A stretch of DNA of 64,000 bases from positions 56,348-120,347 of the forward strand of contig JAUYMS010000046.1 of NCBI GenBank assembly GCA_030698625.1. The letters run 5' to 3'. The notes beneath the pieces are model-generated. The model saw nothing but the letters and a program-made list of their open reading frames with translations, did not search any database and was not told where the DNA came from. The translations under genes and the position numbers were made by a program. The stretch is from Candidatus Omnitrophota bacterium. GTDB taxonomy: Bacteria; Omnitrophota; Omnitrophia; Omnitrophales; Aquincolibacteriaceae. This document shows positions 4,436 through 37,022 of the stretch, in pieces; position 1 is the stretch's first letter, and each line of letters starts with the position of its first letter.

Positions 4436-4439
4436 GAGC

Positions 4440-5432: not shown

Positions 5433-5438
5433 AATACC

Positions 5439-8621: not shown

Positions 8622-8632
8622 TTTAAACCCTG

Positions 8633-9163: not shown

Positions 9164-9180
9164 GGCTAGTGTCTCCGTTT

Positions 9181-11159: not shown

Positions 11160-11215
11160 AAGAGACTCTTCTAAGCAGTTTCATTCTCTCGAAAGACGTT
11201 TAAACGTTTTCGGTT

Positions 11216-12199: not shown

Positions 12200-12207
12200 G
12201 CTATCTC

Positions 12208-13263
12208 CTAAAAGGGACCCTTGAAGCGATTTTCCCAAGAATAAAAACTTTCACCGGAAAGATCTGTTTCGTCTAATCCAAGCATCTGTTCAACCGTGCG
12301 AATGATAGTGACGGCTGAGGGATAAAATAAATTCTCAAGCGGACGAGTCGTCGGGCAGGGTGTGTGAGCGAAGCCCAGGCGTTTGACCGGAGATTTCAGA
12401 TCTCCAAAACAGGCCTCGGAAACCTGCGCAGCGACCTCAGCGCCGAATCCGCAAAAGGCCCAGTCGTAGTCTGCCACGATACAGCGCTTCGTTTTTTTTA
12501 CGGAATCGATAATGGTAGCAGAGTCAAGCGGGGCCAGCGTTCGGACATCGACGATCTCGACCGATACGTTTCGCTTCTCCAGGACCTCACGCGCCTTCAG
12601 GGCCTCGACCATCATCCACGAAGTCGTCACGATGCTTACGTCTTTACCCTCGCGTTTCACTAGGGCCTTTCCGAGCGGGATCTTAAAGTTAAAATCGACA
12701 TCGCCATAGGCGTCATAAAGCCAGCGGTGCTCCAGGACAATAACCGGATCGTCGTCTTGAACGGCAGACCGCAGCAGGCTGTAGGCGTCTTGCGGGTTCG
12801 TGGGCATAACGACCTTAAGGCCCGGGATATGGGCAAAAACGCTCTGCATGGTTTTACTGTGTTGGGCGCCTTGGCCCCAGCCACGACCGATGACGGCACG
12901 GATCACAATCGGGAGTTTGAGTTTTCCTCCTGAGAGATACCTGGCGCATGAGATCATGTTAGCGATCTGATTCATAGCGAGCATCATGAAATCAACACGG
13001 ATATGGACATGGACCGGCCGTAGTCCGCTGATGGCCGCACCGAGGGCCAGACCCGTCATCGCATCTTCAGATAGGGGAGTGGAAAAACAGCGCCTTGGGC
13101 CGAATTTCTCAACGAGCCCGACCGTGCTTCCAAAGATCCGTTTGTGGTCGGCGACATCCAAACCGTAGACGAAGACCTTGTCGTCGGCTTGCATTTCGTC
13201 GACAAGCGCGCGATTCAGCGCTTCTTTGAATTGGATCTGGGTTTTTATGGCGCTCTCCGACAT
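12208..13263 (-). CDS. TPP-dependent 2-oxoacid dehydrogenase E1 beta subunit-like (second copy)
   Basis: 351 aa E1-beta/transketolase C-terminal architecture. Confidence 0.7.
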   Translation of the reverse strand: MSESAIKTQIQFKEALNRALVDEMQADDKVFVYGLDVADHKRIFGSTVGLVEKFGPRRCFSTPLSEDAMTGLALGAAISGLRPVHVHIRVDFMMLAMNQIANMISCARYLSGGKLKLPIVIRAVIGRGWGQGAQHSKTMQSVFAHIPGLKVVMPTNPQDAYSLLRSAVQDDDPVIVLEHRWLYDAYGDVDFNFKIPLGKALVKREGKDVSIVTTSWMMVEALKAREVLEKRNVSVEIVDVRTLAPLDSATIIDSVKKTKRCIVADYDWAFCGFGAEVAAQVSEACFGDLKSPVKRLGFAHTPCPTTRPLENLFYPSAVTIIRTVEQMLGLDETDLSGESFYSWENRFKGPF

Positions 13264-13271
13264 GGTTTCGC

Positions 13272-14462
13272 TTAGTTGATGTCGTTTAATAGCGAACAGA
13301 GTTTCTTGATCTTGCTCACTTCAAGGTCCGGATAATTACCGATATAAAAACCGAGAAAATGGATCAGCTCCACCTGCGGGTACTTATCAAACTGGTCGCC
13401 GACAAGATGCCTCAAATACGGCTGACGCAATTGATTGCCACCACCGGATAAACCGCGGCGGTACTCCACACCGCAATCGCCGAGCAGAGTTGTCACCTGA
13501 TTGACCCGGTCTTTGAAAGATTCTTGAAGCACTAGGGTGAAGGCATAGTTGCTTGCGCCTTCGACCTCAAAATCGGCCCGGTACTTTTTGGGGTCCAGGG
13601 AGCTCAAAAATATGTTCAGGTTGTAATTTCTTTGCTCGATCTCTTTTTCCAGGCGAGGCAGATGATGGCGGCCGATCACCGCATTTATTTCAGTGCTGCG
13701 CACATTGTAAGCGGGAAAGGCGAATATGAATTCCGGGTTCAGGTCTTTGTGTCGGGTCGCATAGAAAGACTTAATTTCCTCAGAGGTTGATTCCCGCACC
13801 AGACCGTGCGAGCGTAACATACGTACTGTCTGATACACCTTTTCGTCATTTGTGCAGACCATACCGCCTTCTATCGTGCTCAGGTGATGTGCGTAATAAA
13901 AGGAAAAGTTTGAGGCCCAGCCGTGAGAACCCACCCGCTTGCCCTTGAATGTGGCGCCGTGCGATTCACAGGCGTCCTCGATTAGGGGAATGCCCCGTTC
14001 TTTTAAACCGTCGATGAGACGGTCCGTCAGAGCGTTATAACCAAGAATATGTGTCAGAAAGACGGCCTTCGTATTCGGGGTGATTTTTTTAAAGACTTCC
14101 TCATCGTCGAGGCCGAGTCGGCGAGGGTGAATATCCGCAAAGACGGGTTGGAAGCCGCATTGAAAAACCGCGGCAATATCGGAAACCCAGGTGAGCGGGG
14201 GGACGATGATTTCACCCGGCCCGAAGATCTCGCGCAATGCTGCAAGCGTCAAAAGATTGGCCGAAGAGCCTGAATTAACGAACACGCTATAGCGTACCCC
14301 GACCCACTCGGCCCATTCGCTCTCAAATTGTTGCACTTCCTCAGACTGAGTCAAACGCGGATTTCCCTTTAAAAAACGAATGACGGCATTGATGTCGTCT
14401 TTAGAAATATTATTACTCATAAGCGGCCAGTTCAGGCCGGAAGGTTTTTCAGAGACGGTCAT
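13272..14462 (-). CDS. DegT/DnrJ/EryC1 family PLP/PMP enzyme of the sugar 3-dehydratase type (ColD/E1-like, His replaces the Schiff-base Lys)
   Basis: 396 aa DegT-family fold; the FSF..K lysine position reads NFSFYYAHHLSTIEGG, the signature of ColD/E1/SpnQ 3-dehydratases; no C-terminal Fe-S Cys motif, so ColD-like. Confidence 0.6.
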   Translation of the reverse strand: MTVSEKPSGLNWPLMSNNISKDDINAVIRFLKGNPRLTQSEEVQQFESEWAEWVGVRYSVFVNSGSSANLLTLAALREIFGPGEIIVPPLTWVSDIAAVFQCGFQPVFADIHPRRLGLDDEEVFKKITPNTKAVFLTHILGYNALTDRLIDGLKERGIPLIEDACESHGATFKGKRVGSHGWASNFSFYYAHHLSTIEGGMVCTNDEKVYQTVRMLRSHGLVRESTSEEIKSFYATRHKDLNPEFIFAFPAYNVRSTEINAVIGRHHLPRLEKEIEQRNYNLNIFLSSLDPKKYRADFEVEGASNYAFTLVLQESFKDRVNQVTTLLGDCGVEYRRGLSGGGNQLRQPYLRHLVGDQFDKYPQVELIHFLGFYIGNYPDLEVSKIKKLCSLLNDIN

Positions 14463-14464
14463 GG

Positions 14465-15433
14465 TTAACTTAACACTCCTGTGTAGAGGTCATCGATTCC
14501 GGGAAAGGCGTCTGTCCGCGCCTTTGCGACACTCGCATCTATTTCCTTGTCAATGTCCGCCGCAATTTTCTCTAACGCCGCTTCCTTTGCCCCCAAGCCG
14601 AGCACCCAGTCTTTGGCCGCCAGTACGGGGTCCACGGCCTCGAGTTCCGCGGCGCTCGGTTTGGGCCGGTAGCCGGCCGCATAATCCAGCCGAACACCGA
14701 CATGGCTGCGAAAGCGATGATACTCGCATTTTAGAAAGCCAGGCTTCCCATCCTTGGCCATTTTGGCCAAAAGTCCTGTGGCGGCTTCGTGGATCAAGTC
14801 GACTCGGTGCCCTGGCGCTTCACCGTAGTGACATTCGAATCCTGCGACCGCGTCTTTCGCTGAACGGAATCCTTGCCGCTCTTTCTTGCCGGTGTGAATG
14901 GCCAGGTTATTGTCTTCGCAGACAAAGAGAACAGGGAGTTTGTGGAGGGAAGCAAAGTTGATGCTTTCCCAGAAAGCGCCTTCCTCCATGGCGCCGTCAC
15001 CGAAAAAACTCGCGACAACATTTTTCTTGTTCTGATAAACATTTGCGAATGCCGCACCGACCGCAACAGGGATTGTGGTGGCAACCACCGCTGACGTCAG
15101 AAGCAGGCCGCGTTCAGGTGCCGTCAAATGCATGGAACCCGCTTTGCCGTGGGCACAACCCGTGACTTTGCCGTAAAGTTCCGCAAAGAAGGTATCGGTA
15201 TCTCCCGTCAGCATAAGGTAATGGGCGTGGTTGCGGTAGGTTCCGAATACCTGGGGCGAACTCCCGAGAGCTGCGATTACGCCGACGGCAATGGCCTCAG
15301 CTCCGATGTGCAGGTGCACAGGGGTTTTGATCTCATCAGTGGCATATTCGGAGCAGATTCTATCCTCACACTTGCGGATGAGGAGAATCTTGTGATAAAA
15401 CTGGATGGCGTTTTTCGCGGAAAGCCGGCTCAC
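14465..15433 (-). CDS. TPP-dependent 2-oxoacid dehydrogenase E1 alpha subunit-like (second copy)
   Basis: 322 aa; GSMH and FFGDGAMEEGAFWESINFA TPP-binding motifs. Confidence 0.7.
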   Translation of the reverse strand: MSRLSAKNAIQFYHKILLIRKCEDRICSEYATDEIKTPVHLHIGAEAIAVGVIAALGSSPQVFGTYRNHAHYLMLTGDTDTFFAELYGKVTGCAHGKAGSMHLTAPERGLLLTSAVVATTIPVAVGAAFANVYQNKKNVVASFFGDGAMEEGAFWESINFASLHKLPVLFVCEDNNLAIHTGKKERQGFRSAKDAVAGFECHYGEAPGHRVDLIHEAATGLLAKMAKDGKPGFLKCEYHRFRSHVGVRLDYAAGYRPKPSAAELEAVDPVLAAKDWVLGLGAKEAALEKIAADIDKEIDASVAKARTDAFPGIDDLYTGVLS

Positions 15434-16428
15434 TGGAAATTGTTGGGTTCATAGATGACGATTTTGCTTCCCGTAAAATCCAATCGGAAATTCACATGAA
15501 TCAAATCCTTAAGCTTTTCACGAATTTCGGGTTGGCGATCGGGTCGCGCGAATAAAAGCATAAAACCTCCGCCGCCTGCACCCAGGAGTTTCCCCCCGTA
15601 GGCACCGGCGCTCTTGGCGGCTTCATAGATCGTATCCAGTGCCGGTGTGGTCACCTTATCGGATAAAGATCGCTTGTACTGCCAATATTCATGTAGGAGC
15701 TTCCCGAAGTTTTCTATCGGAATCTTCGGATTAATCAGAATCTCCATGCCTTCTTTGGCCATCTGCTGCATAATTTGCATCTCCCGCTTACGTGCTTCCA
15801 TGTTTGCGATGTGATGCTTTGCGATTTCGGAGGCGATGCGCGTAAATCCCGTGAAGACCAGCATCATATGTTTCTGAAAATCCTCGATGCGGTCTTTGGC
15901 CAAGATGAGCGGGGTGATATCAAAACTATCGTCAGCATGAAACTGAATGACGTTCAGACCACCGTGAGTCGTGAGTACTTGATCCTGGGAACCGACATGC
16001 TCCTTGAGAATATCCTGCTCCATGTGAACCGCCTCGGTGGCCAGATCCTTCTTGGAAATCATCTGCCCCTTGAGAGCATGGATGGCGTGGATCAGCCCCA
16101 CCGTGAATGAAGAACTAGATCCCAATCCGGAGCGAGCCGGCAGATCCCCGTCATGGTGGATTTCCAGGCCATTTTTGACGTCCATGGTATTCAAGATGCC
16201 GCGCACGGCAGGGTGCTTGATGTCCTTAACTTCATTGACTGAATCGATTTGCGAGTAAACGATGCGGTGCTTGAAGTCGAAGAAGGGGGGCAAATACCGG
16301 CAGCTTATGTAGCAAAACTTATCAATGGTTGAGCCGAGCACCATACCGCCATATTTGCGGTACCAAGCAGGATAATCGGTGCCTCCGCCAAAAAACGAAA
16401 TTCGAAAAGGTGTCCTACTGACAATCAT
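15430..16428 (-). CDS. GHMP-family sugar kinase (heptose-7-phosphate kinase HddA-like)
   Basis: RISFFGGGTDYP and PARSGLGSSSSF GHMP motifs. Confidence 0.65.
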   Translation of the reverse strand: MIVSRTPFRISFFGGGTDYPAWYRKYGGMVLGSTIDKFCYISCRYLPPFFDFKHRIVYSQIDSVNEVKDIKHPAVRGILNTMDVKNGLEIHHDGDLPARSGLGSSSSFTVGLIHAIHALKGQMISKKDLATEAVHMEQDILKEHVGSQDQVLTTHGGLNVIQFHADDSFDITPLILAKDRIEDFQKHMMLVFTGFTRIASEIAKHHIANMEARKREMQIMQQMAKEGMEILINPKIPIENFGKLLHEYWQYKRSLSDKVTTPALDTIYEAAKSAGAYGGKLLGAGGGGFMLLFARPDRQPEIREKLKDLIHVNFRLDFTGSKIVIYEPNNFQ

Positions 16429-16604
16429 ACCGTAATTTTCGTCTTATACCGCGTTAGGCTTAAGTGGAATAAGATACACCATTTAGGACAAAAAGACCAA
16501 GCGAAATTGGGGAAGGCTGATACTCTTCAGTCGCTCCCAGTTCTCTACAGGAAAAGCGTACCACATTGTGGGTGATTGTGTTAGATGCGGAAGGAAATAG
16601 TCGT

Positions 16605-17276
16605 TTAGGAGAAGCGCTCTGCGGCGATGAGGCGGAGGATGTCCATGCCATTAATGAGAGGGTTCATTTTTCGCACCCCGCCGATGCGGGCGGGTTCGTC
16701 GCCCGGGATTTCGCCTGTGTTGAGCTTGTGTTTGGCACAGCGAATAGACAGAAGCGGCTCAAAACCGGCACGCGGCACGCTGGTCTCAAGCTTCAGCATC
16801 GGCATGAGCGACATTCGCCAAGCCCGAAACATGACCAGTGAATCCGTATAGTGCCCTCCAAAAATGACATTGATCATGCGGGTAAACATCCAGTTGCCGA
16901 ACGCTGTGACGGGATCGTCATCCTCGCTCTTGGCGCCGTCCAGGTATCGCGAAACGACAACCATGTCGAAACCTTCCTTCATCTTGCTGACCAGATCGGG
17001 GATACGTTCCGGCACTGAATTCCCGTCGGGGCTGAAAGCGAGGCAAATATCCGTCTTTACGTGGGGGAGTCCCTCTTGATAGGCGCCCGTAATGCCCTTT
17101 GTCCGGGTCTGATGGACGATTTTATACCCCTGATCCTGTGCATATTCGAGTGTTCCGTCTGTCGATCCGCCGTCGACAAAGAGAATCTCATCCACCCATT
17201 CACGTTTGACGAGGGGCATGACGGCCTTCATTCCGGTGATCTCATTGAGTGTGGGTACGAATAATGTAACGCTCAC
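16605..17276 (-). CDS. Family 2 glycosyltransferase, polyprenyl-phosphate sugar synthase (DPM1)-like (second copy)
   Basis: GTG start overlapping the upstream stop (GTGA); paralog of 3770-4435. Confidence 0.7.
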   Translation of the reverse strand: MSVTLFVPTLNEITGMKAVMPLVKREWVDEILFVDGGSTDGTLEYAQDQGYKIVHQTRTKGITGAYQEGLPHVKTDICLAFSPDGNSVPERIPDLVSKMKEGFDMVVVSRYLDGAKSEDDDPVTAFGNWMFTRMINVIFGGHYTDSLVMFRAWRMSLMPMLKLETSVPRAGFEPLLSIRCAKHKLNTGEIPGDEPARIGGVRKMNPLINGMDILRLIAAERFS

Positions 17277-18028
17277 TTGAAAAACTCCTTTATAACTTCA
17301 AGGGATGTTTTTCGAAGTTCCGGCAAGACCGCTACCGCTTTATCTATGACAATGTTGCCGACACGATAATCGAACTCGCCGAAGCGAACGCGTTTGCGCA
17401 CAATATCGGCGAGTTCGGCCATGTGAATATTTTTATTCGAAGCGATATTATAAATTCCTTGTAGGTTCTGATCCAGAGCCTTTTGAATAAAACGAGATAC
17501 GGTGGAATGCGTCACGAAGTTGCATTCGGAGTCAGGCGTCAAACTCAACACCGGCTCTTTATCTTCGAAGATTTTTTTCAGATTTCCCTTTTTAGCATGT
17601 TGACCGAGAAGGCCCGCGCAGCGAATGATGAGGTGATTGGGTGTGTTGACGCGAACAATGGTCTCTGAGACGATCTTGGCCACAGAATAGGGATTTTCGT
17701 GGCTTTCCACATCCAGTGTTTCCTCCTCGCTGTGGGAGACCTCGTTTTTCGGGTAGACCTCGGTGGACGAGATGTAGACGAATTTCTTGTGAGGAAGAGC
17801 TGTTAATTTTTGAGTTAACATGACATTGTCTTCCAGGTAAGCGGGGAGAGTCTCCGGTGAGACCTTGCCTGTGGCATTGAATGCGGCGTGAATGATGAGA
17901 TCAACTCCTTCTTTCGCGAGTTTTTCCAGGAGTTCGGCGCTGTTTTCACGGCTGAGCCCGTAACCGCCAAAAACCTCATAGAGATGCCTTCCCAGGCCCT
18001 GTGCGACGCCGGTTGTGAGTACATTCAT
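17273..18028 (-). CDS. NAD(P)-dependent oxidoreductase, short SDR-type sugar reductase
   Basis: 251 aa; TGVAQGLGRHL Rossmann-like N-terminus; assignment by context and fold-level similarity only. Confidence 0.45.
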   Translation of the reverse strand: MNVLTTGVAQGLGRHLYEVFGGYGLSRENSAELLEKLAKEGVDLIIHAAFNATGKVSPETLPAYLEDNVMLTQKLTALPHKKFVYISSTEVYPKNEVSHSEEETLDVESHENPYSVAKIVSETIVRVNTPNHLIIRCAGLLGQHAKKGNLKKIFEDKEPVLSLTPDSECNFVTHSTVSRFIQKALDQNLQGIYNIASNKNIHMAELADIVRKRVRFGEFDYRVGNIVIDKAVAVLPELRKTSLEVIKEFFK

Positions 18029-18103: not shown

Positions 18104-19678
18104 ATGGGAATCCTATTCGCATCCTCTAGCCGGTTTCGCCTCAAAAACGAGAATGTTGTCGTTGCCATTCTTGCTGCGGCGCTTGTCATTCTCACGCTTC
18201 TTATCTGCAGCTCCGACCTGTCGAGTCATTCCATCTGGCTGGACGAAGCCGAGACGAGATTTAATGCGGATAAAGACAAGTCGGTCGGCGAGGTTGTGAA
18301 TATGTATACGCGCCGCGGTTCGCCCCCCCTCTACTTTCTTGTGATTCACGAGGTCCTGAAGATTCGTGATGACGAGATCAGTTTGAGGATGCCGTCTGTC
18401 ATTTTCGGGGCGGGGCTCATCTTAGCCGTTTTTCTCCTGGCCCGAAAGCTCTTCGGTAATGGCGTGGGGTTTTTTGCCGCGCTTGCATTTTTTCTTTCAG
18501 ATAAATTCCTGCATCATGCCCGCGACGCGAATCCCTACACGATGTACGCCTTTCTCACCACTTTATCGACCTACTGCCTTTGGTGTGCCTGGGAGACGAG
18601 GCGCAAAAAGGACTGGCTTATTTACGCCGCCGTTGCGCTCCTGGCAGTGGGCACACACCTGTTTGCCGTGCTGTTTGTATTTGGGCAGATGGTCACATAT
18701 TTGTTTCTTATCCGGTTCTGGGAAATTTTCAAAATGAAGTCGCGCGAAGAGCTGAAAGCCTTTATTGAAAAAGAAAAGTGTTACTTTGTTGTGGCGGGTG
18801 TTTTTGGTGTGATTTCCGCGGCTTGGTTACTTTTCTACTTTGCGTCCGCGGGATCACGCCCGACGCATCTGTATGAAGAGGTCGTCTCCGCCTCGTTCTG
18901 GTTAGGTCTGGCAAAGAGCGCGTATTTTGCTTTCTTCCCGTTAAAGCGGTATCTCGTCTTTATTGTGCTAGGGCTGGCCTACTACATAATTTCCGACAGA
19001 GAGAAGGGGGCCTATGTCACGGCTGTGGCCGTAGTTCCCGCAATCTTACAAATCGCCGCACTCAGTACGGGCGCCGAAACAGCACCGCGTTATTTCATTA
19101 CGACGGCGCCGCTGCTCTACATTGTGGCGGCCTCAAGCATTCGATTGGGGCAGGTCCTTGTGGAGAAGGCCCGCGTTCACAAAGCGGTAGGCATCGGAAT
19201 AACGATGGCAACTCTCTTATTCTTTGTTCAACCCATGGTTCTTTACAAAGACACCATGAATCAGATTCTGCACAAGACGCGGAACTACAGTTGGCGTCAT
19301 ACGGCACAGTTGCTGGACCATCATGCCACCGAGAACGACATCATCTTGGTCTGTGCCGATTACATGATGTTGCCCCTGGAGTATTATTATAAGGGGTCCG
19401 TAGAGAGAATAGGAATTGAGAAGGACAATGACGACCCCGCTTATTTTAATAGAGTTGTGGATGCCAATTTAATTGGCAAACAAAGGGTTTGGCTCATCCT
19501 CTCACACGTTCGAGGGGATCAGCCGATCGTCGATTATCTTAATCATTTTAAGAGGAAGCTTCGCACCCAAAGCGGGGCGGAGTTTACGATTATGACAAGG
19601 CAGGTAGGGTTTAATCCGATGGCGGACATCGCCATTGTGATTTACGAGCTGGGAATCGCACCTGAGGTAGGAACTTAA
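18104..19678 (+). CDS. Polytopic membrane glycosyltransferase of the GT-C type (ArnT/PMT-like, GT39/83-like)
   Basis: 524 aa, about 11-13 hydrophobic helices in the N-terminal two-thirds plus a soluble C-terminal domain; adjacent to DPM1-like GT2 genes, as in lipid-linked sugar transfer systems. Confidence 0.5.
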   Translation: MGILFASSSRFRLKNENVVVAILAAALVILTLLICSSDLSSHSIWLDEAETRFNADKDKSVGEVVNMYTRRGSPPLYFLVIHEVLKIRDDEISLRMPSVIFGAGLILAVFLLARKLFGNGVGFFAALAFFLSDKFLHHARDANPYTMYAFLTTLSTYCLWCAWETRRKKDWLIYAAVALLAVGTHLFAVLFVFGQMVTYLFLIRFWEIFKMKSREELKAFIEKEKCYFVVAGVFGVISAAWLLFYFASAGSRPTHLYEEVVSASFWLGLAKSAYFAFFPLKRYLVFIVLGLAYYIISDREKGAYVTAVAVVPAILQIAALSTGAETAPRYFITTAPLLYIVAASSIRLGQVLVEKARVHKAVGIGITMATLLFFVQPMVLYKDTMNQILHKTRNYSWRHTAQLLDHHATENDIILVCADYMMLPLEYYYKGSVERIGIEKDNDDPAYFNRVVDANLIGKQRVWLILSHVRGDQPIVDYLNHFKRKLRTQSGAEFTIMTRQVGFNPMADIAIVIYELGIAPEVGT

Positions 19679-19737: not shown

Positions 19738-21333
19738 TTACTCTGCTTTGACTTTCTTTTCTTTCGGTTTTTCGGTGATGGCACACTCGGTTGTCAATAA
19801 CAGGCCGGCAATGCTGACCGCATTTTCAATCGCGGTACGCGCTACCTTGGCCGGATCAATAACACCTGCCTTCACCAAATCTTCGAACTTGCCCGTCTGA
19901 GCATTGAAACCGAAGCCGCCGCTCCCTTCCAGAATCTTACGCACGACAACGGAACCGTCAGAGCCTGCATTTTCTGCAATGCGGCGTGCGGGTTCCTGAA
20001 GCGCGCGGCGAATAATCTGAACGCCGGTTGCTTCGTCGCCTTTTAGCTTGAGCGTATCGACGGCTGCGATGGCACGTAGAAACACCACTCCACCACCAGC
20101 AACGACACCTTCCTGTATGGCCGCGCGGGTTGCATGCAGTGCATCTTCCATGCGAGCCTTCTTCTCCTTCATTTCAACTTCCGTCGCGGCACCGACTTTA
20201 ATCACGGCAACGCCGCCTGAAAGTTTGGCGAGACGCTCTTGCAGCTTTTCCTTGTCATACTCGGAATCCGAGTTGGCAATCTGGCCCTTGATCTGCTCAC
20301 AGCGGGCCTTGATGTCCTTCTGCGAACCGGCTCCGCCGACGATGGTCGTATTGTCCTTATCGATGACAACGCGCTGGGCCGTTCCGAGACTGTCGGTATC
20401 AACATTCTCGAGTTTGACGCCTAGATCTTCGGAGATGAACTTTCCTTTGGTGAGGACCGCAATGTCGTCCATCAACTGCTTGCGACGATCTCCGAATCCG
20501 GGGGCCTTGACGGCGGCAACGTTCAGCACGCCGCGAAGCTTATTGACGACCAAAGTCGCTAACGCTTCGCCCTCGAGATCCTCGGAAATAATCAGAAGCG
20601 GCTTAGCGAGACGGGCCACCTTCTCAAGAAGGGGAACCAGATCCCGAATGGCCGAAATCTTCTTTTCGAAGAGAAGGATGAGCGGTTCTTTGAGAACAAC
20701 TTCCATTCTCTCTGGGTCGGTCACAAAGTACGGTGAGCTGTAACCCCGATCGAACTCCATCCCTTCGACGTATTCCAGTTCTGTGTTCAGGGTCTTAGAC
20801 TCTTCAACGGTAATGACGCCGTCTTTTCCGACCTTTTCCAAAGCTTCGGCAAGGAGAGAACCAATGGTAGTGTCACTGTTGGCACTGATTGTTCCAATGG
20901 CTTGAATATCTTCCTTGCCCTTGATGTTCTTAGCAGACTTCTTGATGGACTCGACGACTATCAGCAGAGCCTTATCGAGACCGCGCTTCAGAGACATCGG
21001 GTTGGCGCCAGCCGAAACATTCTTCAGGCCTTCTTCGATAATGGCCTGTGCGAGAACGGTTGCGGTCGTAGTTCCGTCGCCGGCCTCGTCAGAGGTCTTT
21101 TCGGAAACCTCGCGAACCATTTGGGCACCCATATTCTCATAGGGGTCCTTTAGCTCGATTTCCTTGGCGACGGTGACGCCGTCTTTTGTTATGGTAGGCG
21201 CGCCGAACTTACGATCGATGACAACATTGCGCCCGCGCGGACCGAGTGTAATTCCTACGGTCTTCGCGAGCGTGTCGACACCGCGCTTAAGCTTACGGCG
21301 TGCGGACTCAGAAAATACTAATGTTTTTGCCAT
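19738..21333 (-). CDS. groL: Chaperonin GroEL (copy 1, no Gly-Met tail)
   Basis: 531 aa canonical GroEL; ends KEKKVKAE. Confidence 0.92.
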
Positions 21334-21713: not shown

Positions 21714-23402
<1,689 letters not shown>

Positions 23403-26790: not shown

Positions 26791-27150
26791 ATGTACCGCA
26801 AGTCCGACCTTAAGTTTTTCGCTACGTTTTCTATCATCGGTAATCTACTGATGCTGGCGGCTTTTCTGCTTATCATTATCTACCACTTCTATGTGGGAAA
26901 GGTTCTTTACCGTCAGCTGGCGATCTGTCTTCTGGTGGTATCGGTTTTCATGAAATTTCAGATTTTTATGCTCAAAATCTCAGTCTTGGAAATACGTCTC
27001 TCAAACCTCATTGAGGTCGGAGAGCGTCCCGGGAAAATCGCTTTCGGCTCCGGGATACTGGCGCTTATCCTCTATTCGATTCTCTTCTGGCTTACGTCGA
27101 TCGGCATCCTGCTGAGTCTCATGCCGGTAAACTGGTTTCAAGGCGGCTGA
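26791..27150 (+). CDS. Hypothetical small membrane protein (doubtful)
   Basis: 119-aa hydrophobic ORF in an AT-rich gap between two minus-strand genes; overlaps the 3' end of 27119-28000; no recognisable motif. Confidence 0.2.
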   Translation: MYRKSDLKFFATFSIIGNLLMLAAFLLIIIYHFYVGKVLYRQLAICLLVVSVFMKFQIFMLKISVLEIRLSNLIEVGERPGKIAFGSGILALILYSILFWLTSIGILLSLMPVNWFQGG

Positions 27151-28000
27151 GCATCGCCTGAACCCGGGCGGCCTCGTCGTTCTTTCCGCGCTTCGTCGCG
27201 CCACGGATATAAATTGCAGCCTTATCTTCTAGTGTTTCCGCCGCGGCACGCCGCTGCTCCGGTGTAAGGACATTTGAATTCAGGATGTTCACGAGCGCAC
27301 GAATGCGGAATTGATCCATAGCTTGATAGGCCTGTGATTGCTGATCACTGTGGCCTCCGTAGCGGATGACATGCGGGGACTCGATCAAGCCCACCGGAAA
27401 GCGGGATGCGATTCTGAGCCACAGGTCATAGTCTTCGCAGGCCGGAAACGTTTCGTCGAAGAGGCCGACCTCATCAAATAAGTCGCGTGCCATCATCACC
27501 GCCGACGGGCTGATGATACATAAAGGCAGACACCTCTCAAATATTTGTCCGCCGTATTTGCGATGTTTGTCCATGGGATTGACCCGGCGGCCGTTACGAA
27601 TCCATATCTCTTCGCTCTGGCATATCCGATAGTCCGGACGGCCTTCAAAAAATGAAAGCTGTGTTCTTAGCTTACGGGGCATCCATTCGTCGTCGGAATC
27701 AAGAAAGGCGATCCATGCTCCCGAAGCCTGCCTGATTCCCGTGTTCCTGGCCGCTGCCGGCCCCTGATTTTTCTGCCGGACATAAGTCACCGAAGGAAAT
27801 TCCGCGGCAATCATGGTTTCTGTGCCGTCAGTTGATCCGTCGTCGACAACAATGAGTTCGAACGCAACGGATTCCTGAGCCAAAACCGTCTCTAAAGCCC
27901 TGCGGAGTCTGGGTTTCCTGTTCCAAGTAGGGATAATGACGCTGACTTCGATCATGAGAAGGGCCATTATAAGCGAGATCGACTTATTCTTCACGCTCAA
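27119..28000 (-). CDS. Family 2 glycosyltransferase
   Basis: VSVIIPTWNR, VVDDGSTDGT, DSDDEW GT2 motifs; true start ambiguous (ATG at 28000, 27967 or 27955). Confidence 0.65.
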   Translation of the reverse strand: MSVKNKSISLIMALLMIEVSVIIPTWNRKPRLRRALETVLAQESVAFELIVVDDGSTDGTETMIAAEFPSVTYVRQKNQGPAAARNTGIRQASGAWIAFLDSDDEWMPRKLRTQLSFFEGRPDYRICQSEEIWIRNGRRVNPMDKHRKYGGQIFERCLPLCIISPSAVMMARDLFDEVGLFDETFPACEDYDLWLRIASRFPVGLIESPHVIRYGGHSDQQSQAYQAMDQFRIRALVNILNSNVLTPEQRRAAAETLEDKAAIYIRGATKRGKNDEAARVQAMLSRLETSLPA

Positions 28001-28031: not shown

Positions 28032-29822
28032 ATGTTTGAGTTTGAGATTCAATCCAAGGAACTGCAGGCCTCAGACGTTCCCCCCGCCGTCCTGAGCAGT
28101 TTTACCTGTGAGGAGCCTTTTGAGAGGTCTATTCTTGCCTGGGGCGAACACTGCATCGAGTGCGCTATTCCTCAATGTTACAAAACCTGCGATCTTTATG
28201 AGGCCCGTTCCGATTTGAAGTGCCGGCGTTTCATCGACGGCATTGTGAAGATACGCATGCCGGCGAGTTATCAGGGCTATATTACGCGCATCACCTTTAA
28301 GACGTGGGGGGAACTCTGGTCTTTCGGTAATGCCCGTGTCTACAGCCGTGCGGGAGCAGTCGAGGCCGTCTATCGTTTTTTCGCGCGTGTCGCCAAACTG
28401 TTTCCTTCGGTTCTGGGCCTGGGCTATTGGAATGTGCCGCGTCTTTTCAGCAGCTTTTGTAAGGGAGTGGTTGACGCGATGCGCGCCCTTCCGATCGGGC
28501 GCGAAGCCGAATACTTCTTGATTCAAATCTACAATGAGGAAAGCCGCGTAGTGACTTATTCGCTGAAGATTACCAATGAACCCGAAGGCGGAAAGATCCC
28601 TTTCATGAAGCTCTTTGAAATCGATCCCGGCTATCATGAAGTTTTGGTCCATGTCAGTGAGATCTCCGAGAGGGTCGATCTGAAATCGCGGTTTAGCATC
28701 TATCTTGTTCCGAACATCGAAGACGGTCCTGTTACGGCCTATTTTTCTCTAGTCCATTTTGTGCGGTATGCGCGCGGCCGCCAGCACCCGTGTTCGGCAA
28801 AGAACGTTAAGTGTGTTGTTTGGGATCTTGATGATGTCCTGTGGGAAGGGATTCTTGCGGAAAGCGATATTTCCTCATTGAAGCTCCGCGACGGCATGCG
28901 CGATATTCTGCGGACACTCGATGAGAGGGGCGTTTTACAGAGTATCGCCAGTAAGAACCACCCGGATCTTGCCATGGAGGCCTTGAGGCATCTGGGCATT
29001 GACCACTATTTTCTCTATCCGCAGATCCACTGGCACCCTAAAAGCCGATCATTAAAAACTCTGCAGGAGCAACTGGGTCTCGGCATGGAGGCATTCGCCT
29101 TGCTGGACGACTCCCCATTCGAGCGTGCGGAGGTGAAACAGAATTGCCCGGGCGCGCTCACGATCGACGCGGTCAATTGTCAGAACCTGCTGGCATATCC
29201 TTGTTTCGGGGGAAGCCGTGACGAAGATTCGCGCCAGCGCCGATACTACTATCAGGTAGAGGCAAAGCGAAAGGAAGAACTTGAAAGCAAGTTCAAGGAT
29301 GAGTACTCGACATTTCTCAGGGGTTCCAAGATCACGCTGACACTCTCACATCCCGATTCGGAGAACGCCGACCGCATTCACGACCTCATTCAACGCACCA
29401 ATCAAATGAATTTTTCGCCCAACCGTTACAGCCGCGAAGAAGTCGCGCGCATTATTAAAAACCCGGATCTTGAAAAATGGGTGCTCTCGGCCGCCGACCG
29501 TTTCGGCGATTACGGCATTATCGGTTTTTCGGTGATTGATAAGAAGGCGGCTCATATCACGGATCTGCTGTTCAGCTGCAGAGTTCAAATGAAGAGAATC
29601 GAACACGCCTTCCTGTCACATGTCTTGGACAAGTATCGAAAGGCCGGCGCGAAGCATTTCAAAGTAACCTTTTACGAAACCAAGAGGAATAGCCACAATG
29701 CCAAGGTTTTTGATGACCTTGGCTTTGAACGGGTTGCCGCCGGCGACGGGGTGGATTCCTTTCAATTTCTCTTCGACCGGGGGATTCCCCGCGAAGATAT
29801 CGTCTCTGTTCTCGAACGATGA
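28032..29822 (+). CDS. FkbH-like protein (HAD-IIIC phosphatase domain + GNAT-like C-terminal domain) with an extra Cys-rich N-terminal domain
   Basis: KCVVWDLDDVLWEG (FkbH/HAD-IIIC motif I) near aa 262; C-terminal about 170 aa GNAT-like as in FkbH proteins; N-terminal about 255 aa has CIECAIPQCYKTCDLY...C with no family I can assign. Confidence 0.55.
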   Translation: MFEFEIQSKELQASDVPPAVLSSFTCEEPFERSILAWGEHCIECAIPQCYKTCDLYEARSDLKCRRFIDGIVKIRMPASYQGYITRITFKTWGELWSFGNARVYSRAGAVEAVYRFFARVAKLFPSVLGLGYWNVPRLFSSFCKGVVDAMRALPIGREAEYFLIQIYNEESRVVTYSLKITNEPEGGKIPFMKLFEIDPGYHEVLVHVSEISERVDLKSRFSIYLVPNIEDGPVTAYFSLVHFVRYARGRQHPCSAKNVKCVVWDLDDVLWEGILAESDISSLKLRDGMRDILRTLDERGVLQSIASKNHPDLAMEALRHLGIDHYFLYPQIHWHPKSRSLKTLQEQLGLGMEAFALLDDSPFERAEVKQNCPGALTIDAVNCQNLLAYPCFGGSRDEDSRQRRYYYQVEAKRKEELESKFKDEYSTFLRGSKITLTLSHPDSENADRIHDLIQRTNQMNFSPNRYSREEVARIIKNPDLEKWVLSAADRFGDYGIIGFSVIDKKAAHITDLLFSCRVQMKRIEHAFLSHVLDKYRKAGAKHFKVTFYETKRNSHNAKVFDDLGFERVAAGDGVDSFQFLFDRGIPREDIVSVLER

Positions 29823-30577
29823 TCCCGAAATTCATCAAAAGATCGTGGGTTTCGGCGCGCCAGGCAGTCAGCTGCAGGGTTCTGGCGAAAAGGGTAAACG
29901 TCAATCTCGCCGAACCGCTCGTAACATTCACCTTTGATGATGTTCCCGTTTCGGCTTTCGATGCGGCCGCGCCGATTCTGGAAAAGCATCACTTTAAAGG
30001 GACCTTTTACGTTTCTGGTGCGCTCGCCGAATCAACGGCGGGATTTATGGGGCGGCAACAGATCCGTTCGCTGATCAAACGCGGGCATGAAATCGGATGT
30101 CACACCTACAGTCATGTGAGGACCGGTTTTTCAACCCGGGCCCGGCTGGAGGCTGATCTCCGACGGAACGCCGACTACTTCGAAGAAAACTTCGCGGCGT
30201 ATCGATTATCGAGCTTTGCCTATCCGTTCGGTTCCATTGGGTTATGGAATAAGCCGGTATTGGCAAAACGGTTTCATTCGGCCCGGGGCAATGCCCCGGG
30301 AATTAATCTCGGGGCCACGGACCTTTACACGCTTGCCTCCCACCGCCTTTATTCCAACTTTATGAGTCCGGAATTTGCAGATCGCATTATTCGGGACGCC
30401 ATAGAAAAAAAGGCCTGGCTCATTTTCTATACCCATGATGTGCTGGAAAGCCCGACCCCTTACGGATGCACCCCGGCTCTTTTTACGCATGTCGTGAAGG
30501 CTGTTTCTGATTCCGGCGTGCGCGTCGTCACGATGAAAGAGGGGACCGATTTCATCAGCCCCTTAAGGAGTCGCTAG
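29819..30577 (+). CDS. Polysaccharide deacetylase (CE4/NodB homology domain)
   Basis: TFTFDDVP and HTYSH motifs. Confidence 0.65.
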   Translation: MIPKFIKRSWVSARQAVSCRVLAKRVNVNLAEPLVTFTFDDVPVSAFDAAAPILEKHHFKGTFYVSGALAESTAGFMGRQQIRSLIKRGHEIGCHTYSHVRTGFSTRARLEADLRRNADYFEENFAAYRLSSFAYPFGSIGLWNKPVLAKRFHSARGNAPGINLGATDLYTLASHRLYSNFMSPEFADRIIRDAIEKKAWLIFYTHDVLESPTPYGCTPALFTHVVKAVSDSGVRVVTMKEGTDFISPLRSR

Positions 30578-30578
30578 A

Positions 30579-31358
30579 GTGAATATGTCGTGGATTTGGA
30601 GAAAGGTGACGGCTCTGCCGGTCGGCCGTATTTGCCGCCGGCTGATGCAGCCCGGCATGATCCCCATTTTCATTTCAATGCCGCAGCCGAAGTCTGTGGC
30701 GGAGTCGTCGCAGGCCCTGTTTCCCGACGAAGGCGGCGAAACCATTTTGAATATGCGCAAGCAGCTCCTAGGGAATCAGAGTTTCTTTTCGGATCTTACG
30801 GCGACCATGCATAAAGTCGGGCAGTATCACGATATTCATGACGACTGGTTTCAGTTTCTCTACCTCGTAACGCGTCTTGCGAAACCGATGGTTGTCGTCG
30901 AGACCGGCGTCTTCGCGGGTCTTTCGACGGCTTTTATTTTGCAGGCGATCAAGGACAACGGACGCGGAAGACTCGTGTCCGTGGATCTTCCGGCCGAGAA
31001 TGTGATCGTGGGGTCTACGGACCGTATGCATGATTCCGCGCTTCCTCCCGGATGCGATCCCGGATGGATCGTTCCGCCGGCTCTGAAGGTGAATCACTCG
31101 CTGGTGGTCGGCAACAGTCAGGAAGTATTACCGCGGGTGTTCGAAAAGCACCGAGCCATCGACGTTTTCATCCATGACAGCCTGCACACCGCGGCGCATC
31201 AGAGTTTTGAGTACGCCATAGCTTGGTCCCGCCTCAGAGAGGGAGGAATTCTTCTCAGCGACGATATTTTCTGGAGTCCCGCCTTTCACGAATTCTGCCG
31301 CAAACACCGCAAGCCCTACCTCCATGTTGTGGAAGGTCGCGGTGCTGTTAGAAAGTAG
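30579..31358 (+). CDS. Class I SAM-dependent methyltransferase (TylF/MycF/CmcI-like O-methyltransferase family)
   Basis: VVETGVFAGLST glycine-rich SAM motif, acidic residue in VSVDLP. Confidence 0.5.
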   Translation: MNMSWIWRKVTALPVGRICRRLMQPGMIPIFISMPQPKSVAESSQALFPDEGGETILNMRKQLLGNQSFFSDLTATMHKVGQYHDIHDDWFQFLYLVTRLAKPMVVVETGVFAGLSTAFILQAIKDNGRGRLVSVDLPAENVIVGSTDRMHDSALPPGCDPGWIVPPALKVNHSLVVGNSQEVLPRVFEKHRAIDVFIHDSLHTAAHQSFEYAIAWSRLREGGILLSDDIFWSPAFHEFCRKHRKPYLHVVEGRGAVRK

Positions 31359-31561
31359 TCCCTAGAGCCCCCAAGGTACGCTATTTATTACTATAATATT
31401 ACTACTTAATGATATAATTTGATTGATTATTATCTTGTTTAGTTTGTATTTTGTGTTATTGAGCGTGTATATTCTAAATATAGTTATCTAGTTAGCGTTA
31501 TACCACATTCCACAAAGGCACCGAAACTGGGCTAGAACAATCGGAGTCGGGGAGAAAACTC
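31359..31561. promoter_or_regulatory. Strongly AT-rich intergenic region (promoter/leader of the B12-rSAM gene)
   Basis: 203 nt with long A/T runs (tattactataatattactacttaatgatataatttgattgattattatc...) in a GC-rich genome; similar character to 3486-3769. Confidence 0.35.
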
Positions 31562-33211
31562 ATGGATCTACTCATCATCAACACCAGAATTATGTGGTTT
31601 TCACACAAGTCAATGATTGCCACGGGTCCGCTCGTGCTCGCATCTTACCTGCATGAAAAAGGATTTAGCACCGGTGTGATTGATGATAACTCTGTCTATA
31701 AGCGATACCGACTCAAGGACTACGTCGATTTCATAGAGCGCAATGATGTCAAGATGATCGGGTTTTCGGTTAACACTTTAAATGCCTATAACAGTTACGA
31801 ACTGGCCAAGGCGCTTCGGAAAAAGTTTCCTGATAAGCCGCTACTTGCCGGCGGGTTGCAGAGCTTTGATGCGATCGAAGAAATGGAGCAGCAGTCCTTT
31901 GACGTTATCTTTAAAGGGGAAGCTGAGATTGCTTCGGCGAAGTTTATGGCGGCGGCTAAGAAGTGTTCACCTCATTTGACCCGAGCCATGTTTCGGGATT
32001 CGTCCTTCATGAGTGAACTCGCAGAAATCCAGGGCCTGCATATCAACGTAGACGGCAGGAAAACCGCAACCAGCGACGGGTTCTGCGAATTGGTGCAGGA
32101 TTTAGACGACGTTCCGTTCAGCAATTACGATCTAATCAATCTGAGCGATTACATCAAGTCGAAATTTGATCATCATTCCGTGACGAATCAGCTTAACTTT
32201 CAAAGAGGGTGTCCCTATGCGTGCACCTTCTGCAAGTCGGCCGTCATTGCGCAAAAACTGCGCAATAACAGCGCTCACTATATGATCAGCGAACTCGAGC
32301 GCCGTTACGAGAAGTTCGGGCTGAGCAACTTTTTCATTACCGACTCGAATTTCACGATCGACAAAGCGCGCGTGCAAGAATTCTGTGCGATCATGATTTC
32401 CAAGGGATTGAACAAGAAAATCAATCTCATGATTCAGACTTCGATTGTGATTCCGTTAAGTGACGATGAGATCGACCTGCTTCAGGAAGCGGGAGTGACG
32501 ATGTTTGCTATCGGGGTCGAACGTTTGGGTGAAGGCAACCGCAAGCAGATCAAAAAGGCGGGGAGCGGGACATTAGCCACAACCCTGATCCGCAAGCTGT
32601 ACGATCGCGGTATGCGGTCTATGGTCAATATCCTCGTGAATCTTCCCTTCGACAGCGAAGAGACTATGAAAGAGGAGACCGGTCTCATCACAAAGAACTT
32701 GCCTTACGTCGGATTCCTCTATATCAATTATCTTTGGCCGATGCCGGGAACACCGATTTGTGATGATGACACCAGCAGCAAATACAAAGCATGGTACCTC
32801 GATAAGAACATCGCCGGTTTTCAGGTCCCCTATTACAGCTACGCCTTTCTCCTGGAGGGGGCTCTGGCACTTGACGTGAATATTTTCGGCCACTCGAAGA
32901 AGACGCTTCGGGCCATTCGCCGCTTTAAGGAAGAATTTCAGTGGAAGGGGACCATGGGCGCAACCCGTTTGCCCCTGCTGAAAGTGCTTTTTGCTGCAGA
33001 CATGTTCCTGGGCAAGATCTCCTATTTTGTCGGGCGAATATCACCGAAGTTGGAGCATTTCGTCTTCGCCCCCTTTAAATTCCTGCGTATAAGAGGATAC
33101 AAGATAGTGTTCAATTTCTTCATGGGGCTTGAAAAGAAGCGGGCCAATGCCGAATCCAACCGCTCCGTGACCGGAAAAACCGCGAAATTGGCACTCTCAA
33201 AACCCTGCTAG
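31562..33211 (+). CDS. B12-binding radical SAM protein (class B rSAM, methyltransferase-like)
   Basis: N-terminal cobalamin-binding-like domain; CPYACTFC CxxxCxxC motif; 549 aa. Confidence 0.7.
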   Translation: MDLLIINTRIMWFSHKSMIATGPLVLASYLHEKGFSTGVIDDNSVYKRYRLKDYVDFIERNDVKMIGFSVNTLNAYNSYELAKALRKKFPDKPLLAGGLQSFDAIEEMEQQSFDVIFKGEAEIASAKFMAAAKKCSPHLTRAMFRDSSFMSELAEIQGLHINVDGRKTATSDGFCELVQDLDDVPFSNYDLINLSDYIKSKFDHHSVTNQLNFQRGCPYACTFCKSAVIAQKLRNNSAHYMISELERRYEKFGLSNFFITDSNFTIDKARVQEFCAIMISKGLNKKINLMIQTSIVIPLSDDEIDLLQEAGVTMFAIGVERLGEGNRKQIKKAGSGTLATTLIRKLYDRGMRSMVNILVNLPFDSEETMKEETGLITKNLPYVGFLYINYLWPMPGTPICDDDTSSKYKAWYLDKNIAGFQVPYYSYAFLLEGALALDVNIFGHSKKTLRAIRRFKEEFQWKGTMGATRLPLLKVLFAADMFLGKISYFVGRISPKLEHFVFAPFKFLRIRGYKIVFNFFMGLEKKRANAESNRSVTGKTAKLALSKPC

Positions 33212-35579: not shown

Positions 35580-37022
35580 ATGAAAGTTCTGGCTGCCGAT
35601 AAAGATACGGTTATTCTGTCGCTTGTTTCCACGAGGCTTACCGCCCGAGGTTACGAGGTCGTGGAGTTTTCTGATAAGGAAACCATGCTTCGTTATCTGG
35701 GCCGGGAAACGGTCGATTTGATTTTACTTTCCACGACCATGGATCGCATGGGAGGTATCCTTCTGGTGGAAAAGATCCGTCACACGCCTCATCTTGCAAC
35801 GATACCGATCGTCATGATGGCCGATGAGGACAGTCTTGCGGAGCTCATGATGGCCCGGGAGCACGGTTTTGACGATTTCCTCATCAAGCCTTTTAATGCC
35901 TTCGTGCTGCAGCTGCGCGTCGACATTAATATTTCGCGTAATCGCGCAAGGATCGAGGCCAACGCCCTGACGCATCTTCCGGGCAATCACTCTATTGAAA
36001 GAACGGTGCAGGCGAAGATCCAGAGCGGCGAAAAGTTCTCCGTCCTTTATATCGATATCGGGCACTTTAAATCCTTCAACGATGTGTATGGGTTTGACCG
36101 GGGTGATGACGTCATCCGTCATACGGCGCGTCTTATGTTGGAGACCGCCAGACAACTTATTCCGGAGGGGGAGTATTTTGTCGGTCATGTCGGTGGGGAT
36201 GATTTTGTCGTTATCCTAAACCCTGAATATGAAAAGAGTTATGCAAATAGCTTTATTGCCGAGTTTGACCGAATCATCGGGGCTTACTATAATGACGAAG
36301 ACCGCAAACGCGGTTTCCTGCGCGTGACCAACCGTCGCGGGAAGCGCGAAAACCTGCCTTTGATGTCATGTTCTGTGGCGGCCTGTAATAATCTTCATCG
36401 CAAGTACACCAGTTTGAGAGAAATTGCGCAGGACGCGAGCGAACTTAAGGCGTTTTTGAAATCCCAATCCGGGAGTCATTATCTTCGTGACCGTCGATCA
36501 GAGCCGATTCCTAATATGGAAGCCGCGGTTCAGATTCTGGCACCTCAAAATGATAAGAAGAAGCCTCAGGGCTCATCGGAACCGCTCGGCAAGATATTGC
36601 TTGAGGCGGGACTTATTAACGAACAGCAGCTTTCCAATGCCTTGAAGCGGCAATTTAAGACGGGGCAGCGATTGGGGCAAATTCTAATCGCTGCGGGGGC
36701 CGTCAAGAGCGATGATGTCGGCTCGGTGCTGCAGAAGAAACTCCGCGTGCCTTACGTAAGTCTTACGCGGTACAAGCCGGACCGGCAAGCCTTGAAGGTT
36801 TTTACGGCGGACTTTATGAGATCGGCGCATGTCGTTCCGCTTTCGATGCAGTCGGGCAAGATCAAACTGGCGATGTGTGACCCCTTTGATCTCAAAGTTA
36901 TGGCGGATGTCGAACGCATCACGGGTTATAAGCCGGTACCGAGCATAGCCTTAGAAGATGAATTCGAGAAATTCATGGAGCGTTATGGAAATGAATTCTG
37001 GCCGGAAGAAAACGCGGGGTAG
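35580..37022 (+). CDS. Signalling protein: receiver-like domain + degenerate GGDEF domain (GGDDF) + C-terminal MshEN-type c-di-GMP-binding domain
   Basis: N-terminal CheY-like fold with Ser at the expected phospho-Asp position (DLILLS); GHVGGDDF in place of GGDEF; C-terminal tandem LGKILLEAGLINEQQL / RLGQILIAAGAVKSDDVGSVL MshEN motifs. Confidence 0.6.
   Translation: MKVLAADKDTVILSLVSTRLTARGYEVVEFSDKETMLRYLGRETVDLILLSTTMDRMGGILLVEKIRHTPHLATIPIVMMADEDSLAELMMAREHGFDDFLIKPFNAFVLQLRVDINISRNRARIEANALTHLPGNHSIERTVQAKIQSGEKFSVLYIDIGHFKSFNDVYGFDRGDDVIRHTARLMLETARQLIPEGEYFVGHVGGDDFVVILNPEYEKSYANSFIAEFDRIIGAYYNDEDRKRGFLRVTNRRGKRENLPLMSCSVAACNNLHRKYTSLREIAQDASELKAFLKSQSGSHYLRDRRSEPIPNMEAAVQILAPQNDKKKPQGSSEPLGKILLEAGLINEQQLSNALKRQFKTGQRLGQILIAAGAVKSDDVGSVLQKKLRVPYVSLTRYKPDRQALKVFTADFMRSAHVVPLSMQSGKIKLAMCDPFDLKVMADVERITGYKPVPSIALEDEFEKFMERYGNEFWPEENAG

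Follow-up and report, generated by a model that had tools for sequence, protein, structure and literature searches.

What does an enzyme of the FkbH type do when it is joined to a Cys-rich domain outside all catalogued families and lies beside a polysaccharide deacetylase instead of an acyl carrier protein (ACP)? This question is raised by a gene in a 64,000-nucleotide stretch of contig JAUYMS010000046.1, which belongs to a metagenome-assembled genome (MAG) of a Candidatus Omnitrophota bacterium; the whole of this 64-kb stretch is referred to here as the window. The gene (28032..29822, + strand) starts with ATG and encodes a protein of 596 aa that consists of three parts, i.e. an N-terminal domain (hereafter N-domain), a HAD-IIIC phosphatase and a GNAT-like domain. 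At NCBI, the protein is deposited as MDP3921299.1 and annotated solely as ‘HAD-IIIC family phosphatase’. Its start codon is supported by a family-wide N-terminus, M-[FY]-E-x-E, of which M1 is 91% and E3 82% conserved, and an identical protein in the same gene order is found in an independent assembly (SRR13727534). The protein is a member of a widespread, hitherto undescribed architecture, in which a Cys-rich domain with a weak predicted resemblance to carbohydrate-binding modules (CBMs) precedes a complete FkbH module. While the FkbH kind of enzyme is itself known, both the domain family and the partnership of FkbH with a deacetylase of carbohydrate esterase family 4 (CE4) are undescribed.

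FkbH, OzmB and ZmaN take 1,3-bisphosphoglycerate onto a Cys, dephosphorylate it by means of their HAD domain and deliver the resulting glyceryl unit to the thiol of an ACP. To our knowledge, all characterised FkbH-type enzymes load an ACP, and almost the only role known for them is to provide glyceryl-ACP from which polyketide extender units and tetronates are made. The initial annotation of the window had recognised an FkbH-like enzyme by the motif VWDLDDVLWEG (aa 263–273) and a GNAT-like C-terminus, and this assignment was borne out by both profiles and structure. The NCBIfam model TIGR01686 (FkbH domain) matches aa 259–566 with 213.4 bits (cutoff 146.65), and the protein also passes TIGR01681 (HAD-IIIC), with 48 bits (cutoff 35.75). 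The HAD-IIIC phosphatase core, aa 259–400 (28806..29231, +), contains the residues D265-L-D267-D-V269, S307/K308/N309, K337 and D359/D360; D265, D267, V269, S307, K337 and the D359/D360 pair show little or no variation among 88 homologues and are the same in canonical FkbHs. A full-length AlphaFold2 model of the protein is confident, with a predicted local-distance difference test (pLDDT) of 91.5 and a predicted template-modelling score (pTM) of 0.82, and in Foldseek searches of the model, the HAD core best matches BF1531 (PDB 3slr) and MDP-1. The FkbH C-terminal domain, aa 401–596 (29232..29819, +), as delimited by model and alignment, has a GNAT fold, reaching template-modelling (TM) scores of up to 0.78 against N-acetyltransferases, while the Pfam family Acetyltransf_3 matches it at E = 0.096 only. 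Cys516 (codon 29577..29579, +), which lies in an S-C-R-V motif of this domain, aligns to the Cys of canonical FkbH/ZmaN-type proteins, is 99% conserved in the family and is presumed, by this alignment, to be the acyl-thioester site.

Two canonical proteins align end to end with residues 251–596 of the Omnitrophota protein: Streptomyces FkbH (341 aa; 36% identity) and a ZmaN-type protein of Bacillus cereus (359 aa; 33% identity). HAD motifs I–IV are all conserved, and the sequences in common are KCVVWDLD, SxASKN, the Lys, the DD pair, RTNQxN and the Cys of SCRV. Residues 259–596 are a complete, canonical FkbH module. What sets the protein apart is its company. Canonical FkbHs are ∼340–360 aa long, lack the N-domain and are encoded beside ACP, acyl-CoA/hydroxyacyl-CoA dehydrogenase and O-methyltransferase genes as well as those of polyketide synthases (PKS) or nonribosomal peptide synthetases (NRPS). 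The Streptomyces FkbH locus, for instance, is a methoxymalonyl-ACP cassette comprising an FkbM-like methyltransferase, a hydroxyacyl-CoA dehydrogenase, an ACP, an acyl-CoA dehydrogenase and FkbH, with a type I PKS alongside. The Omnitrophota protein, in contrast, has an additional Cys-rich domain of 255 aa, no ACP and a CE4 partner.

The N-domain, aa 1–255 (28032..28796, +), is conserved yet uncatalogued. That these ∼255 aa could not be placed in any family was already stated in the initial annotation, and profile searches agree: residues 1–255 gave no match in Pfam and NCBIfam scans, 35 members of the N-domain family gave no credible family match in Pfam, and the N-domain profile gave none among PDB sequences, the profile matches of the domain or its Cys core to 2dis and thymidylate synthase having been rejected as noise. 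Unassigned as it is, the domain is nevertheless not rare. A word-indexed search with aa 1–258 had recovered a single fragment, and its profile versions mostly short fragments; it was replaced by an exhaustive HMMER search of residues 1–258 against 1.84 billion representatives (clusters at 50% identity), which identified 548 homologues at E ≤ 1e-3, from many phyla, and 269 at E ≤ 1e-10. Most of them are 590–660 aa long and match over their own residues 1–250.

To view the domain in its genomic context, one genome per species was scanned with an alignment of the Cys core, which gave 126 related loci, 80 of them being retained; through its pattern, W[GAE]EHCTEC, the scan favours members with Thr at position 42. 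Besides Omnitrophota, the family is represented by these loci in Acidobacteriota, Gemmatimonadota, Planctomycetota, Nitrospira, Verrucomicrobiota, Gammaproteobacteria and others, and the loci include those of the cultured Photobacterium phosphoreum, P. kishitanii, P. aquimaris and P. malacitanum and also Novipirellula. In 71 of the 74 loci in which the gene could be called (the basis of the fusion and neighbour counts given here unless another total is stated), N-domain and FkbH module form a single open reading frame (ORF). Apparent stand-alone N-domain proteins are really split genes, with an FkbH-sized ORF following directly, in long-read assemblies, and none of 217 plasmid records with FkbH modules contains the N-domain. 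A fusion artefact of two genes, which the initial annotation had named as a possible undoing of its claim, is therefore ruled out. Long N-terminal extensions at four loci (L022, L027, L069 and L002) were dismissed as artefacts of ORF calling. The N-domain is thus to be regarded as a real and widespread domain that is obligatorily fused to FkbH.

Residues 37–70 (28140..28241, +), which we refer to as the Cys core, account for almost every invariant position of the N-domain. They contain the cluster CIECAIPQCYKTC...C, i.e. C41, C44, C49, C53 and C64 with the spacing CX2CX4CX3CX10C, as part of the longer motif W37-x-E39-H40-C41-x-E43-C44-A-x-P47-x-C49-x3-C53-x2-Y56-x2-R59-x-D61-x2-C64-R-R66-F67-x2-G70. 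Because each of the five Cys is invariant or 99% conserved in the alignment of 88 homologues, whose mean column identity is 35%, the pattern is not due to chance. The initial annotation took the cluster for a possible metal or Fe–S site, and the literature lends this idea substance, since CX2CX4CX3C spacing is documented at the [4Fe–4S] sites of NfnB, the small subunit of glutamate synthase and some ferredoxin subtypes (PMC6405883, PMC11430716). Going by conservation and spacing, the Cys core is presumably a metal or Fe–S site.

The nature of the metal is a different matter. Although the spacing in NfnB, the glutamate synthase small subunit and some 2[4Fe–4S] ferredoxins is identical to that of the Cys core, their motifs terminate in CP and are part of helical domains with two clusters, whereas the Cys core is placed in the loops of a β-sandwich, lacks the CP, has a fifth Cys 10 residues further on and shows no similarity to them in sequence or fold. 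No known Fe–S domain was found in the N-domain by Pfam and NCBIfam (the Omnitrophota protein; the 35 family members against Pfam), among PDB sequences or by Foldseek. As far as the motif goes, a zinc knuckle (CxxC) combined with a helix-borne CxxxC, amounting to a Zn(Cys)4 site, would fit equally well as [4Fe–4S]. To judge from the combination of five invariant Cys with H40, E39, E43, Y56, R59, D61 and R66, the site may well have a role beyond passive support of the structure. It is at the Cys core that the models are least confident (pLDDT 66–69), which is to be expected because the site was modelled without its cofactor.

An AlphaFold2 model of the N-domain alone (pLDDT 86) predicts a β-sandwich with strands in residues 67–104 and 161–246 and a helical hairpin (residues 107–152) between them. 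Searched against the PDB with Foldseek, this model has weak matches to CBM11, 61, 30, 22, 4 and 28 (best E = 9e-4; TM 0.35–0.53), which agree with one another in theme. The helical hairpin insert, aa 106–156 (28347..28499, +, from the AlphaFold2 models), is strongly basic: its net charge has a family median of +7, as compared to −11 for the HAD module. Since no transmembrane segment was found in it either, the insert is suited to docking at a membrane or pyrophosphate, and we regard it as a candidate docking surface for an anionic membrane, a polyanion or a pyrophosphate-bearing substrate. A further comparison is offered by BF1531 of Bacteroides fragilis (PDB 3slr), which is FkbH-like, has ∼218 residues ahead of its HAD domain and, in structure as well as sequence, is what the HAD core matches best. 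However, the two proteins align over the HAD part alone (163 columns), and a relationship of the BF1531-type N-terminal domain to the N-domain is not supported, there being no sequence match and 3slr falling outside the top 50 Foldseek matches.

Directly downstream, the window encodes a CE4 polysaccharide deacetylase of 252 aa (29819..30577, +; PF01522, E = 2.4e-23), the start of which overlaps the stop of the N-domain–FkbH gene (ATGA). It carries the CE4 motifs TFDD, H-T-x-x-H (HTYSH) and Y-T-H-D, and no signal peptide was found in it. Its best NCBIfam match is HfsH (NF050820; E = 1e-52), though the 179 bits obtained are far under the equivalog cutoff of 400, for which reason we consider it a relative of HfsH and not HfsH itself. 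With the holdfast enzyme HfsH of Caulobacter, a cytoplasmic CE4 oligosaccharide deacetylase, it has the metal and catalytic motifs in common. We know of no FkbH protein as a partner of HfsH.

When every ORF lying up to 6 kb from the N-domain–FkbH gene was included in a clustering, a CE4 of ∼255 aa was found in 53 loci, and in 49 of the 74 it is adjacent and on the same strand, usually overlapping the gene or at most 20 bp from it; the same adjacency is seen beside the closest homologue and at locus L086. Other recurrent neighbours are variably placed and less frequent, namely family-2 glycosyltransferases (GT2; ∼36 loci, about half), asparagine-synthase-like proteins and family-4 glycosyltransferases (12 loci each), Wzy/O-antigen-ligase-like proteins (two clusters of 9 loci each) and Acyltransferase_3 proteins (6 loci). 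This clustering contained no PKS/NRPS and no FkbG/I/K-type enzymes.

At least 40 of 73 loci have a glycan marker, be it a glycosyltransferase, a Wzy or an acyltransferase gene, no more than 6 kb away. The glycan-modification setting put forward in the initial annotation is frequent, but it is not universal. In cultured Photobacterium species, such as P. phosphoreum JCM 21184 (L062, 8107–11746), CE4 precedes the N-domain–FkbH gene, accompanied by a GNAT gene (Acetyltransf_3) and a glyoxalase-family gene, and the Photobacterium pair is flanked by housekeeping genes, those of a DEAD-box helicase and phosphoenolpyruvate synthase, with no polysaccharide locus. Five Gemmatimonadales MAGs (L003, L008, L010, L013 and L026) have the pair in a conserved arrangement beside divergent genes of an AcrB-type efflux pump and an outer-membrane factor. 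Because Photobacterium and Gemmatimonadales keep the pair in these other settings, the N-domain–FkbH gene and its CE4 can be considered a conserved unit.

The ACP is what this unit lacks. The initial annotation had pointed to a nearby ACP partner as something to look for, and six-frame translations were searched with four seed sequences and a hidden Markov model (HMM) built on them, complemented by one Pfam check. This search found no ACP in the 64-kb window, with the caveat that very divergent carriers could escape a four-sequence HMM and a single Pfam check, and the same HMM detected none in 79 of the 80 related loci. The one credible match is an ACP-like ORF at L037, ∼7 kb from the N-domain–FkbH gene. 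In the window, a 119-aa ORF between tsaB and the GT2 gene (26791–27150, +), which may not be a genuine gene, was considered as a hidden ACP and set aside, as it matches no Pfam family.

Two other FkbH-like proteins from polysaccharide biosynthesis loci serve as comparators. In Sinorhizobium meliloti (L088, 3057–8092, on a pSymB-type plasmid), an MBOAT protein, an ACP and a 628-aa FkbH-like protein are encoded in a Dlt-like arrangement near the rkp capsule export genes, and Aquisphaera giovannonii (L089, 5386–8397, likewise on a plasmid) has a 1003-aa FkbH–ACP–thioesterase fusion in an O-antigen-type locus. Both resemble the Omnitrophota protein in that the FkbH module comes with extra domains; unlike it, they retain a phosphopantetheinyl carrier, be it adjacent or fused, and are not paired with CE4. 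Their N-terminal extensions have neither a match to the N-domain HMM nor the Cys motif. Since the comparators keep the ACP and are without N-domain and CE4, the latter two appear where the ACP is missing.

What, then, might the pair be doing? Our tentative proposal, which we hold to be possible and would not yet call probable, is that the N-domain–FkbH protein is an ACP-independent glyceroyl transferase re-acylating a sugar position freed by CE4. Cys516 would attack 1,3-bisphosphoglycerate, as in characterised FkbH, OzmB and ZmaN, and the HAD domain would strip the 3-phosphate to yield D-glyceryl-S-Cys516. Because there is no ACP, we propose that the GNAT-fold domain would hand the glyceroyl group straight to the acceptor. 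The translationally coupled, cytoplasmic CE4 would make up the other half of a two-gene unit and, on the cytoplasmic side of the membrane, deacetylate a sugar residue of a glycan that is linked to a nucleotide or lipid, exposing an amine (or hydroxyl) as the most likely acceptor; the net outcome would be an acetyl swapped for a glyceroyl. To the N-domain, finally, would fall the binding and positioning of the acceptor, be it a glycan or a lipid pyrophosphate. In the Omnitrophota organism, the adjacent methyltransferase may O-methylate the glyceroyl group, a link that would fit as a local, unconserved one. Of all this, the architecture, the conserved catalytic residues, the pairing with CE4, the missing ACP and the predicted folds are observations, while the donor substrate, the kind of acceptor, the task of the N-domain and the identity of the metal are inferred.

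There is chemical precedent for such a product. N-glyceroyl and di-O-methyl-glyceroyl groups are present on bacterial nonulosonic acids (PMC5378307, PMC3068675), and the genes for N-glyceroyl sugar modifications are largely unknown (PMC5378307). (Di-O-methyl-)glyceroyl pseudaminic acid shows that glyceroyl can be the N-acyl group of a sugar, and the window likewise has a methyltransferase after the pair. The flagellin glycosylation locus of Campylobacter jejuni includes an FkbH-domain gene, cj1302 (PMC7099621). The likeness lies in the placement of such a gene among those for glycan modification; in contrast to the Omnitrophota protein, Cj1302 is not reported to have a Cys-rich N-domain. The cj1302 locus, we assume, also encodes ACPs.

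Several other explanations compete with direct glyceroyl transfer. A conventional, ACP-dependent FkbH would have its carrier encoded elsewhere (AcpP or an unlinked ACP) and rely on a separate acyltransferase, with the N-domain in a docking or regulatory role and CE4 as a pathway neighbour. Such a system would have behind it every characterised FkbH-type enzyme we are aware of, catalytic residues that are identical to those of the canonical enzymes, the carriers used by both other glycan-linked FkbH-likes (those of S. meliloti and Aquisphaera) and the ACP-like ORF of L037. We still judge it rather unlikely: canonical and other glycan-linked systems keep their ACP adjacent or fused, whereas the ACP search summarised above came back empty for the window and for all but one of the loci; the pair has no acyltransferase as a conserved companion, and the Photobacterium module consists of the two genes and a GNAT gene only. 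The N-domain could also be the very thing that replaces the ACP, as a cofactor-bearing module that is itself catalytic or a carrier, either through a Cys thiol relay in cis or through a [4Fe–4S] centre that would bind or transform the enzyme-bound dihydroxyacyl unit, for instance by dehydrating it in the manner of dihydroxy-acid dehydratase, in which case a pyruvoyl- or lactyl-type unit and not simply glyceroyl would result. A single Zn or [4Fe–4S] site would require only four of the five invariant Cys, the clustering of invariant residues in aa 37–70 (H40, E39, E43, Y56, R59, D61 and R66) is reminiscent of an active site, CX2CX4CX3C is a [4Fe–4S] pattern and the N-domain is found only where the ACP is missing. 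However, the domain has no similarity in sequence or fold to an Fe–S enzyme, a ferredoxin or a carrier, its predicted fold is a β-sandwich like that of binding modules and the idea is purely inferential, making this explanation an unlikely one.

More doubtful still is the notion that the FkbH half now serves other chemistry altogether, e.g. as a sugar-phosphate phosphatase with a GNAT-type acyl-CoA transferase and without any glyceryl unit. The NCBI label goes no further than ‘HAD-IIIC family phosphatase’, HAD and GNAT folds are both versatile and motif I has Val at position 269 in place of the family's usual Thr. These points notwithstanding, we consider it very unlikely, given that the residues common to canonical FkbHs, including the thioester Cys, are 99–100% conserved in the family, that the domain bearing this Cys has no recognisable GNAT signature of the acyl-CoA type (the marginal Acetyltransf_3 match being all there is) and that the score is well above the cutoff of an FkbH-specific HMM. 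That the whole architecture could be an artefact of fusion or assembly, or its Cys pattern accidental, is refuted for all practical purposes. A few database entries are indeed split into two ORFs, but the single-ORF architecture is shared by many phyla and includes complete genomes, the protein recurs unchanged in an independent assembly, the single-chain model is confident (by its pTM) and the five Cys do not vary among the 88 sequences. Direct glyceroyl transfer by the N-domain–FkbH protein remains the reading we favour, at the tentative strength given above.

The genes further downstream were partly as first described. The initial annotation listed a polysaccharide deacetylase, a TylF-like methyltransferase and a B12-binding radical S-adenosylmethionine (SAM) protein, and all three are present, but for the methyltransferase a TylF likeness is not supported. 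It is a class I SAM methyltransferase (30579..31358, +) that begins 1 nt after the CE4 stop and matches Methyltransf_24 (E = 1.7e-19) and, marginally, Methyltransf_3, while no TylF-family model gave a match at E ≤ 0.1. The B12-binding radical SAM protein (31562..33211, +) matches PF02310 and PF04055 above cutoff and reached no NCBIfam equivalog. The 203-nt spacer ahead of its gene (31359–31561) is strongly AT-rich, and the radical SAM gene may on this account be a separate transcription unit. As for the elaborate glycan-tailoring system that had been read into this arrangement, comparison speaks against it: of the downstream genes, CE4 alone is conserved, none of the other 80 related loci encodes a homologue of the radical SAM protein and distant Methyltransf_24 counterparts of the methyltransferase occur in 6 loci, adjoining the N-domain–FkbH gene in 3 of them. 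Such a system would be specific to this organism at most.

On the other side, a divergent family-2 glycosyltransferase gene (27119..28000, −) lies upstream; the neighbours of the N-domain–FkbH gene in the window are the GT2, CE4, methyltransferase and radical SAM genes together with housekeeping genes. A promoter and terminator scan of 26.7–33.5 kb gave counts at or below shuffle expectation and did not delimit the operon, and an Rfam scan of the whole window gave no matches, hence no riboswitch or rRNA.

Elsewhere in the window, a large sugar-nucleotide-type cluster (1300–18028, −) includes two pairs resembling the α and β chains of thiamine pyrophosphate-dependent E1 enzymes (14465–15433 with 12208–13263, and 6323–7993 with 5439–6350), a DegT aminotransferase, a GHMP kinase, several epimerases/dehydratases of the short-chain dehydrogenase/reductase type, a HAD hydrolase, DJ-1/PfpI and PhyH dioxygenase proteins, a HemN-like radical SAM protein and also GT2s. 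By appearance, its product would be an unusual sugar, possibly one with a two-carbon branch. It is followed by a PMT_2/ArnT-like membrane glycosyltransferase (18104–19678, +). A PMT_2-like gene directly upstream of an N-domain gene, on the fragmentary contig L001, is unrelated to the one in the window by BLASTP. Tandem paralogues of the Cpn60/GroEL family (19738–21333, − and 21714–23378, −) are located between the sugar cluster and housekeeping genes, and a 480-aa protein with a receiver domain, a GGDEF domain and a C-terminal, c-di-GMP-binding MshEN domain is encoded at 35580–37022 (+).

If the N-domain does replace the ACP, the protein would represent an unrecognised, carrier-free route from 1,3-bisphosphoglycerate to the sugars of the cell envelope and possibly the missing N-glyceroyl transferase. 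If the acetyl-to-glyceroyl swap is true, the pair would account genetically for the modification of sugars with N-glyceroyl and O-methyl-glyceroyl groups and would provide a direct link from central glycolysis to the decoration of surface glycans and a new domain family for the databases. Since the pair is present in cultivable Photobacterium species, the proposal is testable.

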